From the NCBI GenBank assembly GCA_965645245.1, contig OZ287068.1, positions 2,666,001-2,730,000 on the forward strand: DNA of 64,000 bases. Direction: 5' to 3'. Each line of letters starts with the position of its first letter. The first letter of the stretch is position 1. Made by a program: the position numbers and the translations under genes. Positions 23,677 through 32,744 of the stretch are shown piece by piece. The DNA comes from Massalongia carnosa. Lineage: Eukaryota. Below the pieces are notes generated by a model. The model saw nothing but the letters and a program-made list of their open reading frames with translations, had not been told where the DNA came from and did no database searches.

Positions 23677-26600
23677 TATGATTGTTGTTGAAGGTTTGCG
23701 TCGTCGTCAATGCATCGACTCCCCATCCACTGACAAGATCCGCCGTAAAGTGCGAGAATGGAGAGAAATGTGCGCAAGATGACCCAATCTTGAATCAGGC
23801 TCGAGCGCAAGTGAAGGCTGGCCAATGGTTCACAGATGGATAAAATTGCGTTATGACTTGCGACGTGGCTCTGGACTGGGGTCTATCCGTCGTAAATCAG
23901 GAAAAAAGACACGCGAGATCGACAGGGCAACGGGGCAGTGCTTTGAAAGCTGATCCTCTTTCTCGTACTTTTTAGCGAAGCGTTGGCGGAGGAGCAGACC
24001 GGCAAAGTGTCCAGCAGGATGGGACTGCTGTGTGAGATAATTCGAGGATGCGGGGGACAACGGGTTTAATTGATGAATGGATGAAGAAGGGGATTGGTGT
24101 GAAGCGCCTGGGGGGAGGGAAATATTATTGAGGATGGGAAATTAAGTTCTCCAGATGGCTCAACACCAAACTCCACAAGCCTCTCAGCGCCTCTTATGTT
24201 CGTAACTTAATTAACCCTTAAACTCCCTGCTTCAGCCACACGCAAGGGAAGCAAAGCAGGTCCGACTGGCAAAACTAATCTTCCGTCCCGGAGAAGTGGC
24301 TAGTTTGCGAGTTGTGCGAGTTTAATCTCAAACGGGTTAAGTGGGTTTTCTAATTAGTACTTATAGAATGCACTTAGCCTATTCGGGCCTGTTTTCTGTT
24401 TTCTCCCCCCAACCTTGATTCGGTCCTAGTCCTAGCCTGAAGCGTGAGTCTATTTTTGGTATCACGTGCTACATACTCTGTAGTACTCGGAAGATCAGAA
24501 GAGGCGACGACTAGTCTTTCCAGACATGTACTATATCCTCCTCATGAACCACCATCAATGGAACCACCAGCAGCAGCTTCCCATCGTCTCGCGCCGCCAC
24601 TCCGCAGGTTACGTGTCTTCTTTATGATCGCTAGCTTCAATCTCTCAATCACATCGTCGATTCACTTGCATTCTTGAAACCTTCCAACACCTTCTGCAAC
24701 CGCCAGGCTGTGACATCCTTATTGATCATTTGCTGAAATGGCTTTCATAATTAAGGCACTCGATGTAGCATTTTCTTGGTATCATCTGCTATTGACACTG
24801 GCAGTTGCATGTACGGAATAATCTATAGCTGGGTCCCTAGCTTGCCTAGGTTTCCTTGGCTTACTTGCTACTTTCCTTGTTGAAAAAGGCAACCATCGTT
24901 ATCTTGCTCGCGGCCGGAATAGAGGCAGTCTTTGCTTCATGATCATTTCAATACACCTTGTAGCAGTCCAACCTTTCCGTCCCTACTTTATAAATGTTTA
25001 GTGTATATATGCAAGCAATCTAGCACAACTTGCTTGCGCCCTATCCCTTTTTATGGGCCGGTCTCATCTTATCTCAGCCTTTACTCGGTCTCACCAGTTT
25101 GTCATATAACCCTTATCAGCAACAAGGAAATGTTCGCTAGACCTTGGACAGAAAAAAGTCGACACAACGCCAATATTTCCTATTATCAAGTGCCTATACG
25201 AAGGTATAACCAACTCCTTGTTGCATCGTGCTAGCAATCGATTCCGAAATGGAAGGAAATGAACAACATAGCGGTTGGGTCTGCCAGATTTATACCAAGT
25301 ATATTCGTGTTAACATCGTCAAGGAAGATCACTTTTGGGCTGTATTAAGCATACCCTTATAACTGACCTCTCTGCAACTAATTCTCCAAAACGATATCAC
25401 GGGTGGGAGAGTGTTTGCTTATCAAACCAATCGAGCCCCGGCAGGAAGCTGCCAGTATGCGGCCTCAAATCTTGGAGCAGAAGTTTTGGCTGGCTCAACG
25501 ATAGCCTTAACAAGCTACAAGACTCTGAATTCTTTCGGCGATTCGGATTAGTTCCTCATCCCAAATAGAGAAGCGAGCGGTAGTAATAACAACAGTCTAT
25601 CTATATCCGGCTTTAACGGTCAAAAGTCATCTGCAACTATTGTCCCGTCGCTTGCCAAGAACTGAAGCATCTTCGCCGGTTTCTTGCACCCTGCCAGATC
25701 TTCAATGTCTGCGTCGATTCTAACTACCACTTTTCTATCTAATTCGAGACCTTACAGTGATGGCCAATCTTCATCGCTCCAACCCCCTCAGGCCCCAAAC
25801 CGAGAGGCTCTCTCCTGTATTTCCTTCCATTGGTTCATCCTCACTATTGTGTAACAAATATCATCCAAAATCCCCTCTATTATGGCTATGTGACAAACGG
25901 AGAAAAGACTCCGGGTACTTTAGACACATTCAAGAAGAGCTGAGTTATCCAGCGTTTCTTTTAAGTTTCTCGTTCATTCCCAACCCAAGAAACCCCCCTC
26001 CCTTCCTCTCTAACCCTCCAACCCCACGAAACCAACCTCTCCTAGCTGATCGCGCTCTCCCATTCATCTTAATCCACCTATCCCCAAACACCACACCAAA
26101 CGCTCGCTCGCTACCCCACCCTGCCCTACCAGGTCATGTCAAAAGCCTACCTACACCGAAGTCTCTCTTTAGCCATCTACCAGTTCGCTGTGCGTCCGTT
26201 ATCTGGATACCTAACCGAATGCCCACCGCCGAACGCCACAACCGTATTGTAAGGGTACAATTTTAAAAAAAAAAACAAATACCAGCAGCAACAAAATAAT
26301 GCGCCTCCCTGGAAACGCTCGGGCCGAGTTTTGTACACTCAAGCTAAACCGAGTGCCTCGAATAGGGTAAAAGAACCCCCCAATTCGCAGATAAACTAAG
26401 GCATCCCAACAACGGCGATCGATGATTTAAACTAATTCCCCAATGCTAAAACAACTCTCTCTCCTCTTTTTCGGGAGGAAAAAAATCCGGGGGAGTGGGT
26501 AGGTAGTTACATAGCCGCTAGCTGAAATATCGAGACGGGGAAGGGAAGGGAAGAGGTAGGTAAATACGTAGCTGTAAATTTTTTCTAGGGAACGGGAAGG

Positions 26601-26943: not shown

Positions 26944-29346
26944 TCAGTCCTCGTCCTGCCCTAATCGTCTATATTGCCCCTCTGACCCACCTCCACCCCC
27001 GCCCTTATCGCCTCTACCTCCGCCTCTTACATCCTTGCCGCTTCCCCTCCCCAGCCTGGAGATCCAACCCCCTATACCCTCCCCCCCGCTCCCATCGTCT
27101 GGCCCCTTCCCGCCATCCTTACAATTCTCTTCCTCGACCGGCGGGTTGATGTCCAGGCCCGGGATGGCGCTGTCGGCGCTGAAGTGGCCCGGAGCGCCGC
27201 GGCGGATGTCGAGCGAGGGAACAGGCGAGCGCAGGCCCATGAGGGACTCGACTTCGGCATGCTGGGCTGGGGTTGGCATGGCTGTAGTGGCATCACCGAA
27301 AAGCTGGTCCATGTCTTCGAGCCTGATGTTGGCGGTTTCGGGGTAGAGGAAATATACTGAGGGAGGCTGTCAGAGAGTGGTTTGACAAGATTAAGAGGAA
27401 GAACAAGGAAACAGAGACGGATCGGGCTCACCAATAACGAAGCTGACGGCGCAAAAAAATGCATGTACAAGATAGAGCCGCCACTTGATCCATTCCTGCA
27501 GGATAGGGGTTAATTCCCCCACGATCCAGTTGCAAGCCCAATTGGCCGCCGTACTCAGGCTAGCGCCTTTAGCCCGAATGCTGAGGGGGAGGATTTCAGG
27601 GGGGTAAAGCCACGGAATGGGACCCCACGAGGCTCCAAAGGCGGCGTTGTAGATCATGACGAAGATGACAGTCAGCACAGGCGTGTAATGCACGTCGATA
27701 AAGATGAAATAGGAAATCGCGGAAAGGGATATAATCATGGCGATGGCGCCGGACAAAAGAATAATACGTCGACCCCATCGATCAACCAAGTACCATGGGG
27801 GAATTGTTGAAAGTAAATATGTAATGCCGTTAATGCCTGTCATGAGAATGGCATCACGGCCGATCCAGCCGGCGGACTCGAACACAAGCGGCGCGTAGTA
27901 GGATATGACGTTGATGCCGTTGAGCTGGGCCAATGCCTGCGCGGACATGGCAATGAAAAGCCGCTTGTAGTATTTGCGGAACATCTCCCGGTATGAGCGC
28001 TCGCCTTCTTGTCGTTGCAATAAAACGTTCATTTTTATTTCGCGATACTCTTGTCTGGCCTTATCGTTGTGGATATCTCCACCCCCGTAGAGGTTGGCAA
28101 TTACCACAATTCCCTCCTCGTCATGGTCGTTGTCGAGCAGCCATCTGTAGGTTTGATCAGTCCCTTGTATTGCGGCAACCCATATGATCAAGCACCCACC
28201 TGGGAGATTCACAGATGATCAAGCTGCCAAGACCGAGGAGAAGGCCCATGAAACATTGGAGTAGCAGAGGAACTCGCCATGCGTAGTTGCTGGGTATGTA
28301 GCTGCAAAAGTAATCCACCCACACACTCGCCGCATATCCACTGACATTGCCGGTAAACTCGATGCAGGCGAGTTTCCCTCGGTTATGCGGCGGTGATATC
28401 TCCGACTGATAGACCGGTACGATGGTTGATAACGCACCCACGCCAAGACCAGCAATGATCCGCCCTAGGTACATCATCGGCATGCCCGTGGCAAATGTCT
28501 GTAAGGCTCCCCCGATAAAAAAAATAATAGAGCCATATAATATGGTCTTTCGTCGGCCAATCATATCACCTATTCGTCCGACACTCAACGATGCAATGAA
28601 CGCTCCCACTTCTAGTATGGCAACCATAGTCCCTATCTCAGCCCGTGTTGGCTGGTTGAAGTAGTCTTTGAAAAAAGAACCTCTACAGCGCAACGGACGC
28701 AGTTAGCATTGCCTTCGCCATGGATCATCCGTCTCCTACGTTATTATTCCCGACATCACGCCTTGATCGTATCCAAATAAAAAGACCCCCAGCGAAACAA
28801 ACACGCTTGTAAAATACCTAGAGTCGGTCAGCAAATGGTCATGAAGGTTGTTTAAATTCGGGCGTACAAAAGAGGCTTTCCCGTCAAGCCATATGAATGG
28901 CTTGCTTGCTGATCGCCCGTCATAATTGTAGCGAGGAACTTCTCCGCGCGGCTGATAACCCTAAGGGGAGGGTTTGGGATCTGGATAGCCTCTTTGTTGA
29001 CGCCAGGGTGGGGATTTTTGCGCTCTCGATAGCCCTGCGGCGCGTAATGAACGTGTTTAGATTGCCGACCCTGCGGACTTAGGCTCCGGCGAGGAACGGG
29101 ATTATCAAACGAGGACGGAAGATTTATCCGCAGGGGGTCTTGCTCGTCTGCAAGCTGCTCGGCGAGATCACCAGTGTCACTCCACAGCGAAAAGTCGGAC
29201 CCGGCAGAGTCGGACGAATGCCGGCGCCCTTGTTTCTCGTTGGTGGGGTCGAGAAGGGCGGCGGAATGTCCGTCTCCTGGATCCGAAGGGAATGCGAGTG
29301 GGCGAAGCGGGATGCTGACCGATCTAAGAGGCGTTGAGAGAGGAAT
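26944..29346 (-). CDS. MFS sugar porter (monosaccharide transporter), multi-exon; first in-frame ATG at 28923, candidate non-AUG start at 29346
   Basis: YFTSVFVSLGVFLFGYDQGVMSGII; GDMIGRRKTI; GRIIAGLGVG; PVYQSEISPPHNRG; CESPRW; AQLNGINVISYYAP; VDRWGRR; WGPIPWLYPPEILP; PETAN. The start position is uncertain. Confidence 0.93.
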
Positions 29347-31060
29347 GGTGGCGGTAATTATGGACTGACAAATTGCAGCCCGTGAGAGTAGGATCGGAAT
29401 GTAATGGTTTTTCTCTCTCTCGTCGTTTTTTTTTGTTCTTATTAATGTAACGTGAGGGTTTGAAATGGACCAGCGTGGGTTTACTATCCACTCAAGAACG
29501 TGGATCAGATCACGACCGATGGTTGTCTTAGGTTCTGCAGTCCACACATTGAATGCTGCAGCGTGACAATCCCTCGTTCCATGTAAATTGGACACGAGAC
29601 CGGCGGCGTAGCAAATTATAAGCACGATATATGCTGTGTGCTGTGTGCTGTGTGCTGTATGCTCCTAACTGTCCCATATAATGACCAATTGCCAAAATGA
29701 TTAGGAGGTGAACGGTACTTCAGAGCGGAGGGGAGCTTAGTCATCTTGAGGGAGTTTAGCTCCACGCTCCTTTTATTATTTCAAGCAGCCACGAGCAATG
29801 GAATGCATAGGTAAAGTGCTACGACTGTCTATTCTATTCGACCATGCCTTTGAGCTTCTAATCGATGCTCCCTTGAAAAGAACTTGAATCGAAGTAGAGA
29901 ACTCTAAGGCTTGATCATGTTGAATGCTAGAGAGGAACCGCAGAGAACAAGGATCCATATCGCCGTCTTTGAGAAAGCCGAGAGTCTCCGAGAATCATTC
30001 ATGTTCTTCGCGCTTTACAAAAGGAAGCGCAAGCCGGACTTCACTGAATGTAGAGTACAGAAGTACTCTGTAGTTGGTGCCCCGATCTCGCCTGCGCTCT
30101 GCAGGCCGTCTGACTGGTAATAATATCCTCATGACAACATGAGGGAGGAGGTCACGTGGAGAATGATGCAGCATGTGGCTACATGTCCATATTAGTTTTC
30201 CGTCATTGTCCATCACTGCTCATCCGTTCTCCATTCATGCTCGTGGCGATGCCGATGGAAACCTCTTAACTCGGCTTTCTACAGCAATCTACGATTATCG
30301 CTTGTTTTCATCTCTACACATCTAGATATTCGTTTCTCTCGATGTTTACAGCGGATCCAGAGAGACTATACGCTCCTCTAGCTACTTTGAAGTGCATCCT
30401 AGAACGGTGCTTTTCATCTCATAATTTAAGTTGCCTATGTGTGCTGTAAATGTGTGGAGAAACGAAAAGCAAAACAACAAATAGTCAGCTTGTAAAGCAA
30501 GAGAAGTGGATGAAGTGAGAATTCAATATTCATCTTTTAAAAGACGAGCTCAAAGCCTTGAGGGCTGATACAGGCCCCATTTTTTGCTGTGGAAAAGTCT
30601 GCTGAAGCAAGAACTAAAGACTATGATAACTTCAAAGTGTGCGCTACAAAAATATTTCTTGCTATCTCCGGGCTAGATTCTAGACAATTCGTTCCAACTG
30701 GCTTAGAATACCCGTCGCAGATATTTTCCGCTCTGGCCTAGGAGTTATGTTTTGTTGTACTCGTACCTGTATGAGTACGCCGATGTTTCATTATTATTCC
30801 GCCTATGTGCCGTCTATCCCGCAACACCAGGAAGGGCGCGGCAGGTCAAGCCAAAGCCAAGTTTAATTGTTGTTTATATTACATAGTACCTAGGCGCACC
30901 GAACTCCATGTTCTTCAAACATCTACTTATCATATATGAAATTTCATATCTCCTTTATAGCTCTTGCATTCAATGAAATGGTAAACCTTTCCTGCTAGCA
31001 AATATTCAAAAAAAAGTCTTGGTTTCTGGAGAGTCATTCAATAGAATTAGGGCAGGAAAT

Positions 31061-32744
31061 ATGAAGGTTGCGGCATGCTTTATTTATGCAGTTGCATTCA
31101 TCTTGTTCGCTCAGTCTAATGCTCTCGCTGTGGTTGAGCTTGTCATACATCAAGAACGTGTTGGAGATGATATCTTGTCACGACGGGCAACATCCAAGAG
31201 TGTTGGGCAAGGAATTGGAAATGCGGTGAGATCTAAATACTTCCCGTCTCAGGAAATAGTATTAATCCACCTAGGGCGAAATGTGGACGATTAGTATTAT
31301 TATTGGTACACCCCCTCAACCGTTAAGATTGATGGTCGACACTGGTAGTTCTGAGCTTTACGTGAACACCTACACAACCGATAACTGTGAAAACGAGGGG
31401 CACCCTTGCGCTCCTTTCGGCGTTTTTGACCCCGATGCCTCCCATACAAGGAAAATAGTCGGTCATGATTTTCTAGTGGACTTGGAAGTCCAAGGCTCGA
31501 TGAGCGGTGATTATGTCACCGATATCGTGTACTTGGCTGGACAGCGCTTGGAGAACCTACAGTTCGGTGTGGCAATCCACTCTTACTTCCCGTTTGGCAT
31601 CTTTGGTCTGAGCTATGGGACCAACCAAGGACCAGATAACAAGGCACACTATCCAACCGCTATTGACCATCTTTTCAGAAAGCAAGCCATTAAAGTTAAG
31701 GCCTTTAGTTTTTTTATGGATACCCAGAGCACAGGCCGCATTCTATTTGGTGGGATCGATCATGCAAAATTCAAAGGAAATCTTGTGACTATATCTATCA
31801 TTCCAGTTGAAGATGGGATCTACAAGAGATTTCAGGTCAATCTTGGAAAAATCGGATTAGCACGAGGGCCTAAAGCCATACCTTTGCGGTCGGGTAGAGG
31901 GAATCATCCCATAAAAGCTGTCTTGGATAGTGGAACTACTCTGACATATCTCCCTCTTGCTATTGTGGATGATATAAGGTTCGTCCTGCAAGCATCACAA
32001 ACCGATAAAGACGGGTTTCCCTGGGTCGATTGTGGAATTGGTGAGTCAGGTTTGATCTTGCATTTTACATTTGAACAAGTCAAGATATCAATTCCGATAG
32101 CCGCCATGTTGGATACACACACTCCCCCTATAATGGTGGAAGGTGTTCGACGGTGCTTGCTCGGGGTTGGTCCCACTCCAGTCGATGTGTCTCTATTGGG
32201 TAAAAACTTTCTCGCCGCCACTTATGTCGTCTTTGACCTGAGCAACAACAAAATCTCTCTTGCGCCAATTAAGAAAGGGGTAACACAGAGCGATATTGTT
32301 GAGCTTCCCCTATCGGGTGTTCTCGGGTTATCGCATTTGCAGTCCAGTGCTTTCGACGATCTAGATAACTCAGCAGAATCCTTTTCAGGTGATTCTACGT
32401 CGTCAGCCTACAACGTCGATACTAATCCTCTCAACCTGGCAGACGTGTTTGCGGACTCCGATAGTTCTGCCTCTTTGGACGTTAGCGCCACAACCCATAT
32501 GGATACTTCCGGGGCCCCAGGAACTGATACATTCGCCCTAGCACTAAACCCCGTGGACGGAAGCAGCAGTGGTTTTCCAAGCCTCTTTACACCAACAGAC
32601 ACACCGGCTTCTAATCCCTCCAATCCGGAGAATCCCACAGTTGCGGATAATCCCACTAATCCTAGCTCATCCTTTGACATGATGGCATTTTCTCCGCAAG
32701 AACAAGGCTTCTTTGGGGAGACTAATAATGTAGATCATTTGTAA
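31061..32744 (+). CDS. Secreted pepsin-like (yapsin-type) aspartic protease with an acidic Ser/Thr-rich tail, 2 exons
   Basis: Signal peptide MKVAACFIYAVAFILFAQSNALA; dibasic RR propeptide site; IGTPPQ; catalytic DTGSS and DSGTT; ILFGGIDHAKF; YVVFDLSNNKISLA. Confidence 0.92.

Follow-up and report, generated by a model that had tools for sequence, protein, structure and literature searches.

A sugar porter gene of the major facilitator superfamily (MFS) from Massalongia carnosa (assembly GCA_965645245.1, contig OZ287068.1) appears to have two in-frame start codons on one mRNA: an AUU that would open a long isoform and a conserved AUG, 141 codons further downstream, that would open a short one. 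We put the probability of this explanation as a whole at about 0.78. The DNA analyzed, called the window here, is the stretch of 64,000 nucleotides (nt) from 2,666,001 to 2,730,000 of the forward strand; the gene lies on the minus strand, and all feature positions are relative to the window. A first-pass annotation had already proposed an AUU-initiated N-terminal extension of this transporter. The comparison with related DNA speaks for that proposal: the transporter frame is free of stops throughout the extension, the ATT is invariant in 41 distinct sequences together with C at -4 and A at -3, and the coding boundary falls at the ATT. Judged from these comparisons, initiation of the extension at the AUU is likely.

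A candidate AUU start codon and its relatives

The first in-frame ATG of the transporter, with its A at 28923, reads MTGDQQ... (MTGDQQASHSYGLTGKPLL). Upstream of it the frame had been described as open and protein-like, and it does stay open to a stop just above 29664, reading ...SDSAGSDFSLWSDTGDLAEQLADEQDPLRINL...ISRAEKFLATIM. The ATT at 29346-29344 lies in this frame 141 codons 5' of the ATG, as the annotation held, in the context ACCGCCACC-ATT-CCT (29341 to 29355, minus strand; the C at -4 is 29350 and the A at -3 is 29349), and the frame remains open for 106 codons upstream of it. A scripted listing of all minus-strand ATGs found none in any frame between 29549 and 28923, which confirms that 28924-29546 (623 nt) is ATG-free; this covers the 141 codons of the putative extension (28924 to 29346, minus strand) and part of the presumed 5' leader (29347 to 29546, minus strand). 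The earlier figure of about 10 ATGs expected by chance was too high: 7.1 would be expected from the window's own mononucleotide composition and 5.0 from its first-order composition. Only one ATG-free gap on the minus strand of the window is longer, that of 748 nt at 23724-24472. Taken alone, it is only mildly unusual and not unique in the window; the ATT signal goes beyond chance because the ATT, its context, and the ATG-free stretch recur in relatives.

An alignment of the extension, used to scan metagenome contigs, yielded 80 related loci (81 sequences with the window). An in-frame CAnnATT followed by (C/T/G)C is present upstream of a conserved DTGDLAEQL block in 76 of the 81. The other five comprise three that are cut off before the site, one (L028) cut just 3' of it, and one (L076) with an ATG instead; hence, where the site is covered, 76 of 77 sequences carry ATT. 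With the same ATT in 75 related loci, an assembly error in the window, against which the first-pass annotation had warned, is implausible. Detailed counts were made on 41 distinct sequences, that is, the window and 40 loci. Exact or near-identical copies (e.g., L003, L004, L006-L008, L011, L013, L016-L019, L021, and L023-L025) and truncated loci (L028, L029, L061, and L078) were omitted, as were L072, which has a 5' flank of just 34 nt, and L076. The best protein matches of the 41 belong to Lecanoromycetes, Leotiomycetes, Chaetothyriales, and Penicillium, and a few of the sequences are only about 40% identical to any named protein.

The proposed start codon is ATT in all 41 sequences, whereas six other conserved Ile columns are ATT in 61 of 222 cases, and the remaining Ile codons of the extensions are ATC (150), ATT (76), and ATA (73). 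Between the ATT and the conserved ATG (124 to 156 codons per sequence), 13 residue columns are invariant; 12 of them are encoded by two to six synonymous codons, and the exception is the first, where the Ile at the ATT has one codon throughout. The codon thus seems to be constrained as nucleotides and not as isoleucine, because it is the sole invariant column with one codon and the other Ile columns vary. Conservation extends to its surroundings, with C at -4, A at -3, and C at +5 in 41/41 and T at +6 in 38/41. Both the C-A at -4/-3 and the C-T at +5/+6 fit the Neurospora consensus, which we take to be CAMMATGGCT. The annotation had suggested looking among relatives for a near-cognate codon conserved in good context, and the ATT is such a codon in every sequence of the set. 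The importance of an A at -3 is brought out in the cpc-1 study (PMC5487733).

The coding signature and its boundary

Stops are absent from frame 0 in all 41 sequences between the ATT and the ATG, compared with 92 and 261 in the other two frames. Mean pairwise differences at codon positions 1, 2, and 3 are 0.38, 0.31, and 0.61, so that the codon-level conservation to be looked for in relatives' 5' regions is present. These data bear on the idea that 28924-29346 is an untranslated leader conserved at the RNA level, with the protein starting at the AUG. Such a leader would account for the lack of ATGs, which is shared by many 5' leaders, and for the absence of a Pfam family. It is scarcely credible, however, given a single stop-free frame, third positions that vary the most, invariant residues written with synonymous codons, and protein-level matches with E values down to 1e-59.

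The coding conservation starts exactly at the ATT; upstream of it the frame is broken by in-frame stops and by a 1-nt indel between close relatives. The nearest in-frame stop lies 3 to 106 codons 5' of the ATT (median, 22) and within 15 codons in 16 of the 41 sequences. In two loci it comes three codons before the ATT (TAG CTG CCC ACA ATT in L030 and TAA ACC TTC ACC ATT in L047). Between the ATT and a hairpin upstream of it (see below), L047 and its close relative L053 are offset by a 1-nt indel, with the ATT in the transporter frame in both, and across the set the spacers between hairpin and ATT occur in all three phases.

The same region speaks to the possibility that translation of the extension begins not at the AUU but at a different non-AUG codon nearby, or at several that vary by lineage (ACG, AUC, or CUG), and that the ATT is kept for a different reason. 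Some lineages do have ACG or ATC directly before the ATT, or an in-frame CTG 9 to 36 nt upstream, and cpc-1 is described as using several near-cognate codons (PMC5487733). However, no alternative near-cognate position common to the loci was found. Neither the three codons between the TAA and the ATT of L047 nor the 16 codons between the in-frame stop and the ATT of L063 contain a near-cognate codon. The ATT is the sole invariant codon and alone has an invariant C at -4 and A at -3. We therefore regard a different non-AUG start as quite unlikely.

Intron-less contigs

Two metagenomic contigs look like assembled transcripts. L047 (2,228 nt) reads through the exon junctions, whereas its relative L053, 85% identical, has four additional segments of 49, 52, 49, and 62 nt, each of the form GTAGGA or GTAAGT...CTAAC...AG, that is, introns. 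The 362 nt upstream of the ATT in L047 are collinear with L053, uninterrupted by gaps of at least 15 nt. L047 carries the leader, hairpin, TAA, ATT, and open reading frame (ORF) as one unbroken piece, and the ORF runs from the ATT through 622 codons without a stop until the contig ends. Most simply, L047 was assembled from spliced mRNA. Its only upstream ATGs are two, at -196 and -95, which open upstream ORFs (uORFs) of 8 and 2 codons. In this mRNA, it seems that no AUG can feed the extension, because the TAA stands three codons before the ATT, no AG lies between them, and the leader is collinear with L053. L072 (2,639 nt) has an uninterrupted ORF of 739 codons from the ATT to a TAA, followed by a 385-nt 3' tail and preceded by 34 nt. 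It lacks insertions of about 54 nt that are present in L063, to which it is just 72% identical, and it too was probably assembled from spliced mRNA.

A 3' splice site in the pyrimidine-rich CCTTCCTCAA that follows the ATT was also considered and rejected, because that segment has no conserved AG and the frame of the IPSS codons is kept.

The extension as a conserved protein and its public gene models

The part of the product from the ATT to the end of exon 1 (160 residues, P0002) was used as a protein query against 1029 candidates. At a threshold of E <= 0.01 it matched 113 proteins, with the best E value reaching 1e-59, and nearly all of the matches are proteins of 700 to 790 amino acids with Sugar_tr and MFS_1 domains. 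The best named match to the extension, from Peltigera leucophlebia, is 66% identical. In an exhaustive search of cluster representatives (clusters at 50% identity), 162 clusters matched at E <= 0.001 and 111 at E <= 1e-10. The extension is thus conserved, which disposes of the first-pass annotation's concern that it might not be. Named matches, which include Aspergillus, Penicillium, Exophiala, and Onygenales (Eurotiomycetes), Leotiomycetes, Dothideomycetes, and Sordariales, fall in five classes of Pezizomycotina (Lecanoro-, Eurotio-, Leotio-, Dothideo-, and Sordariomycetes); the class was checked for four of these names. The conserved blocks are IPxS, IPLRxL, RRxSS.S..SDFSLWSDTGDLAEQLADE.DPL, HVHY, and KEAIQIPNPP.R.ISR.E..LA.I. 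A Pfam search with the extension alone gave no family, and an ESM Atlas search gave top scores of 0.77 to 0.80, below the meaningful level.

The N termini of the public homologues agree from a block x-I-P-S-S onward, and 5' of it they have neither length nor sequence in common. Some models join short Met-starting upstream pieces to the conserved block (e.g., MIARLPTITGIIPSS in Peltigera), and several models from Penicillium and Onygenales are fused with an upstream mitochondrial-carrier domain (PF00153 plus PF00083) into proteins of 940 to 1120 amino acids. Fused models or models with odd N termini include P0056, P0057, P0072, P0078, P0089, P0092, P0093, P0098, P0102, and P0104-P0107. Disparate N termini and fusions are to be expected where gene predictors cannot find a start codon, and the fused or invented N termini are probably a systematic annotation error that arises from the missing AUG. 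If so, moving the start of the orthogroup's public models to the AUU would be a practical annotation fix.

Taken at face value, these models imply that an AUG comes from an unrecognized exon further upstream, joined to the extension by splicing a few codons 5' of the ATT: they start with Met, join short upstream pieces, and many assume such an exon, and in the window the 106 open codons 5' of the ATT leave room for an acceptor site. An exon of this kind, which the first-pass annotation had named as a danger to its own proposal, appears to be excluded in one relative by the TAA of L047, where four introns are gone, no AG separates the TAA from the ATT, and the leader matches that of L053 throughout. 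Moreover, the modeled N termini do not resemble each other, the frame shifts between relatives upstream of the ATT, and the fixity of ATT among its synonyms would be left without a reason. In the window, no same-strand gene that might donate an exon lies within about 1.7 kb upstream of the transporter. An upstream exon is, in our assessment, very improbable.

AUG depletion and probable leaky scanning

In-frame ATGs between the upstream in-frame stop and the conserved ATG are absent from the window and from all related loci examined except L076. Met codons number 0 of 5,778 in the 41 extensions, compared with 3.2 to 3.6% Met in the transporter bodies of four homologues. Only nine out-of-frame ATGs occur, one each in nine sequences, and 32 of the 41 extensions are ATG-free in all frames. 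Shuffling of synonymous codons within each sequence predicts 65.7 +/- 5.7 out-of-frame ATGs, with a minimum of 51 in 200 shuffles. All nine residual ATGs have a pyrimidine at -3. A cruder count on 49 sequences, some of them anchored at a more upstream ATT, gave 12 ATGs, against 243 expected from composition and 443 in an equal length downstream. The ATG at the end of this zone (28921 to 28923, minus strand; IM-T/S-G), the proposed start of the short isoform, is present in 41/41 sequences, with A at -3 in 39, including the window, and G in 2.

Two isoforms from one mRNA are proposed because scanning beyond one start toward a second in the same frame is expected to select against any AUG in between. 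Leaky scanning from the AUU to the conserved AUG is probably the source of the short isoform, with somewhat less confidence than we attach to the AUU start itself; the annotation had likewise postulated long and short isoforms by this route, and the ATG depletion in all three frames lends it indirect support. The short isoform could also come from a second transcription start site in or downstream of the extension, as N-terminal isoforms commonly arise in this way, for example in aminoacyl-tRNA synthetases (PMC7049704). An internal promoter does not predict depletion of ATGs in every frame over some 420 nt, whereas scanning does, and the weak -3 position shared by all of the leftover ATGs points the same way. 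As a replacement for leaky scanning, a second transcription start site is unlikely, but the two could coexist.

A hairpin upstream of the AUU

In the window, an inverted repeat GGGCUG-caauuugu-CAGUCC in the 5' leader (29362 to 29381, minus strand) ends 15 nt before the ATT. It would form a stem-loop with a 5' arm at 29381-29376, an 8-nt loop at 29375-29368, and a 3' arm at 29367-29362, including one G.U pair. A contiguous stem of at least 6 base pairs (bp), with G.U allowed, is found at this place in 35 of the 41 sequences, compared with 19% in shuffles, 20% at -110 to -66, and 0% (0/41) at +4 to +48. The homologous stems end 9 to 17 nt 5' of the ATT and occur as GGACUG/CAGUCC, GAGCUG/CAGCUC, GGCGCUG/CAGCGCC, and GGGCAG/CUGCCC, besides the G.U form GGGCUG/CAGUCC. 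Folded individually, the -46 to -5 regions have a mean minimum free energy of -11.6 kcal/mol and a mean z-score of -1.5.

In a plain MAFFT alignment of 35 sequences, 91.4% of the cells are paired, against 27 to 47% when the partner is slid, and nine cells in two of the six pairs are changed on both sides, a number equaled in 1 of 500 shuffles. RNAalifold on the raw MAFFT alignment returned just four pairs at -0.54 kcal/mol; this result is weak because MAFFT had split the 3' arm, and the stem was therefore tested via the stated structure, per-sequence folding, and a fitted alignment. The structure-fitted alignment, which leans towards the structure by construction, has 96% of cells paired (27 to 54% when slid) and 10 double-change cells, equaled in 0 of 500 shuffles. 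When 52 loci and the window were searched with a covariance model derived from 13 sequences, the window and 50 of the loci each gave a single match where the element was expected. The exceptions were L076 and L028, a truncated locus, and three weak additional matches (E values of 0.49 to 0.85) fell elsewhere. Rfam 15 gave no matches at E <= 1 over 28800-30400. Taken together, we have moderate confidence in a conserved structure upstream of the ATT. Pairing of a GAGG before the hairpin with the CCTTCC after the ATT was dropped by eye, as the GAGG is absent from Lecanoromycete-like sequences.

By the account of a preprint (10.64898/2026.05.12.723742), a clamp at the exit of the 40S subunit holds mRNA positions -9 to -14, and positions -17 to -20 rest on eIF3a and eIF3d. 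The stem would then be just outside the 40S exit when the AUU is in the P site. It is conceivable, although we consider it doubtful, that the hairpin is a dedicated cis-element for start codon choice that acts from the trailing (mRNA-exit) side of the 40S subunit. The arrival of the AUU in the P site would coincide with the emergence of the 3' arm from the exit channel, and such an element would refold at that moment; it might then anchor the complex or be recognized there by subunits of eIF3, and perhaps it sets the ratio of long to short isoform in answer to helicase or initiation-factor activity under a changing sugar supply. If this is true, the hairpin would be an upstream counterpart of the known enhancement of non-AUG starts by downstream hairpins. 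The lineage of L076, with an ATG and without the element, fits this idea as a single case. In any event, the hairpin raises the question of whether RNA structure on the exit side tunes near-cognate initiation.

L076 itself represents a divergent lineage with an ATG (GGA ATG ACA, at L076:2354) close to where the ATT would be expected. The AUU may have been exchanged for an AUG naturally in this lineage, with loss of the hairpin. A direct replacement of the ATT by this ATG was considered and set aside: its Met lies 22 residues before the IPL block, compared with about 12 for the ATT elsewhere, and the positions are not clearly homologous.

Proposed mechanism and points against it

According to the mechanism that we propose, scanning 43S complexes would first meet the AUU at 29346-29344 in its strong fungal context (CA-C-C-AUU-CCU). 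Met-tRNAi would initiate there at a submaximal rate, giving a long isoform composed of a 141-residue acidic, Ser-rich cytosolic tail and the transporter. Complexes that pass the AUU would scan some 420 nt, kept AUG-free in every frame by selection, and would then start at the conserved AUG at 28923, giving a short isoform with an ordinary N terminus of about 20 residues. The 6-bp stem-loop that ends 9 to 17 nt 5' of the AUU may tune how often the AUU is chosen. The tail could carry sorting or sensor signals, as the first-pass annotation supposed. For the tail, the sequence suggests a role in regulated, phosphorylation-dependent trafficking or turnover, because an RRxS site is followed by an acidic stretch (motifs that were read by eye and not by a tool).

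Several points weigh against this proposal. (i) Because the 41 sequences share ancestry and a small number of lichen metagenomes supplied many of them, the counts do not represent independent events, although codons have turned over in the control Ile columns of this set. (ii) The +4 position is C in 36 of the 41 sequences, T in 2, and G in 3, whereas the classical consensus has G. (iii) AUU is among the weaker near-cognate codons, and the long isoform could therefore be rare. (iv) The RNA origin of L047 is deduced from its missing introns only, and a retrocopy would look alike. (v) The public model from Exophiala dermatitidis has a Met 16 residues 5' of the aligned ATT position. (vi) As for the hairpin, the compensatory changes are confined to two of its six pairs, and the opposite strand forms a palindrome of almost equal quality (a stem of at least 6 bp in 80%), which makes a role at the DNA level possible; the G.U intermediates would favor RNA on the sense strand.

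The transporter gene and its surroundings

The gene product is a sugar porter of the MFS (PF00083). Two large exon ORFs of the window match Pfam Sugar_tr with E values of 1.8e-38 and 4.9e-51 (133 and 174 bits; cut-off, 22.3), and a full-length homologue (P0004) scores 351 bits, with the body of the protein covered over its full length. The coding part of exon 1 would run from the ATT to the 5' splice site (28868 to 29346, minus strand); it ends ...CCT CTT TT before GTACGC, where homologues go on ...GKPLLYFTS. Intron 1 (28818 to 28867, minus strand) is 50 nt long (GTACGC...CTGAC...TAG), and joining of its flanks gives ...KPLLYFTSVFVSLG, as in homologues. Exon 2 (28740 to 28817, minus strand) encodes the first transmembrane helix, YFTSVFVSLGVFLFGYDQGVMSGIIT, and is followed by intron 2 (GTAGGA...). 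The remainder of the gene (26944 to 28702, minus strand) has more exons and introns, a stop codon at 26946-26944, and a long conserved C-terminal tail. This tail (26944-27369, minus strand; ...SPVPSLDIRR...AIPGLDINPP...GIGGWISR...) has no Pfam family.

The nearest ATGs 5' of the ATG-free gap, at 29549 and 29582 (minus strand), share a frame and a common TGA, 14 and 25 codons long, respectively; in a transcript long enough to include them, they would form short uORFs comparable with the two in L047. The 748-nt gap elsewhere on the minus strand (23724-24472), which exceeds the transporter's own, might be another long leader or a similar case. Beyond the leader, the nearest gene is a divergent plus-strand ORF (about 30977-32744) with a signal-peptide-like start, DTGSS and DSGTT motifs, and a Ser/Thr/Pro-rich tail after them; by these motifs, it resembles the pepsin-type aspartic proteases.

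Relation to known systems and significance

On every comparative feature tested, the transporter appears to join a known kind, the non-AUG N-terminal extensions of fungi. The cpc-1 gene of Pezizomycotina has conserved near-cognate ACG, AUU, and CUG codons, and the AUU (NCC7) has been retained by 64 of 100 species (Ivanov et al. 2017, PMC5487733). As in the transporter, its extension is conserved across Pezizomycotina, lacks an in-frame AUG, and has near-cognate codons in good context with A at -3. Unlike cpc-1, which has several near-cognate codons and two uORFs, the transporter has a single invariant AUU (76/77) and no conserved uORF that we could see, and it adds an all-frame AUG-free stretch down to the AUG and a conserved hairpin just upstream. 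In Cryptococcus, ArgRS uses an AUU start (cccaccAUU) for its mitochondrial isoform, with leaky scanning to an AUG (Wallace et al. 2020, PMC7049704). Here, too, an AUU in strong context (ccgccaccAUU in the transporter) begins an N-terminal extension and a downstream AUG begins a second isoform. However, the ArgRS extension is a short mitochondrial targeting signal on a soluble enzyme of a basidiomycete, whereas that of the transporter is a 141-residue cytosolic tail on a plasma-membrane-type protein of ascomycetes. Peroxisomal isoforms of 6-phosphogluconate dehydrogenase likewise arise through non-AUG initiation (PMC7214817).

A further comparison concerns RNA structure. Kozak's hairpin at +14 is said to be a downstream structure that assists non-AUG initiation. 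Structure-assisted non-AUG initiation by a downstream hairpin has also been described as START (PMC11165317). Common to these systems and the transporter is a local stem-loop near a near-cognate start codon. In the downstream systems, the structure lies 3' and stalls the leading edge of the 40S subunit, whereas the stem-loop of the transporter lies 5' and the 45 nt downstream are poor in structure. With respect to the protein family, the transporter body fits Sugar_tr (PF00083), and the Pfam model does not reach the extension. A full-text search, supplementary files being outside its reach, found no literature that describes a non-AUG start for this transporter family, and the word "transporter" has 0 occurrences in the text of PMC5487733 that was searched.

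What appears to set the transporter apart are its single invariant AUU, a very clean AUG-free zone, its being a membrane transporter, and a hairpin that lies upstream and not downstream. The conserved tail without a known family may be a new regulatory module of sugar porters. Given its single invariant AUU, its sharply bounded coding conservation, and some 420 nt without AUG, the gene would rank among the clearest natural eukaryotic non-AUG starts. The AUG-free pattern spans several classes of filamentous and lichen-forming ascomycetes, which implies that the long and the short transporter both matter.

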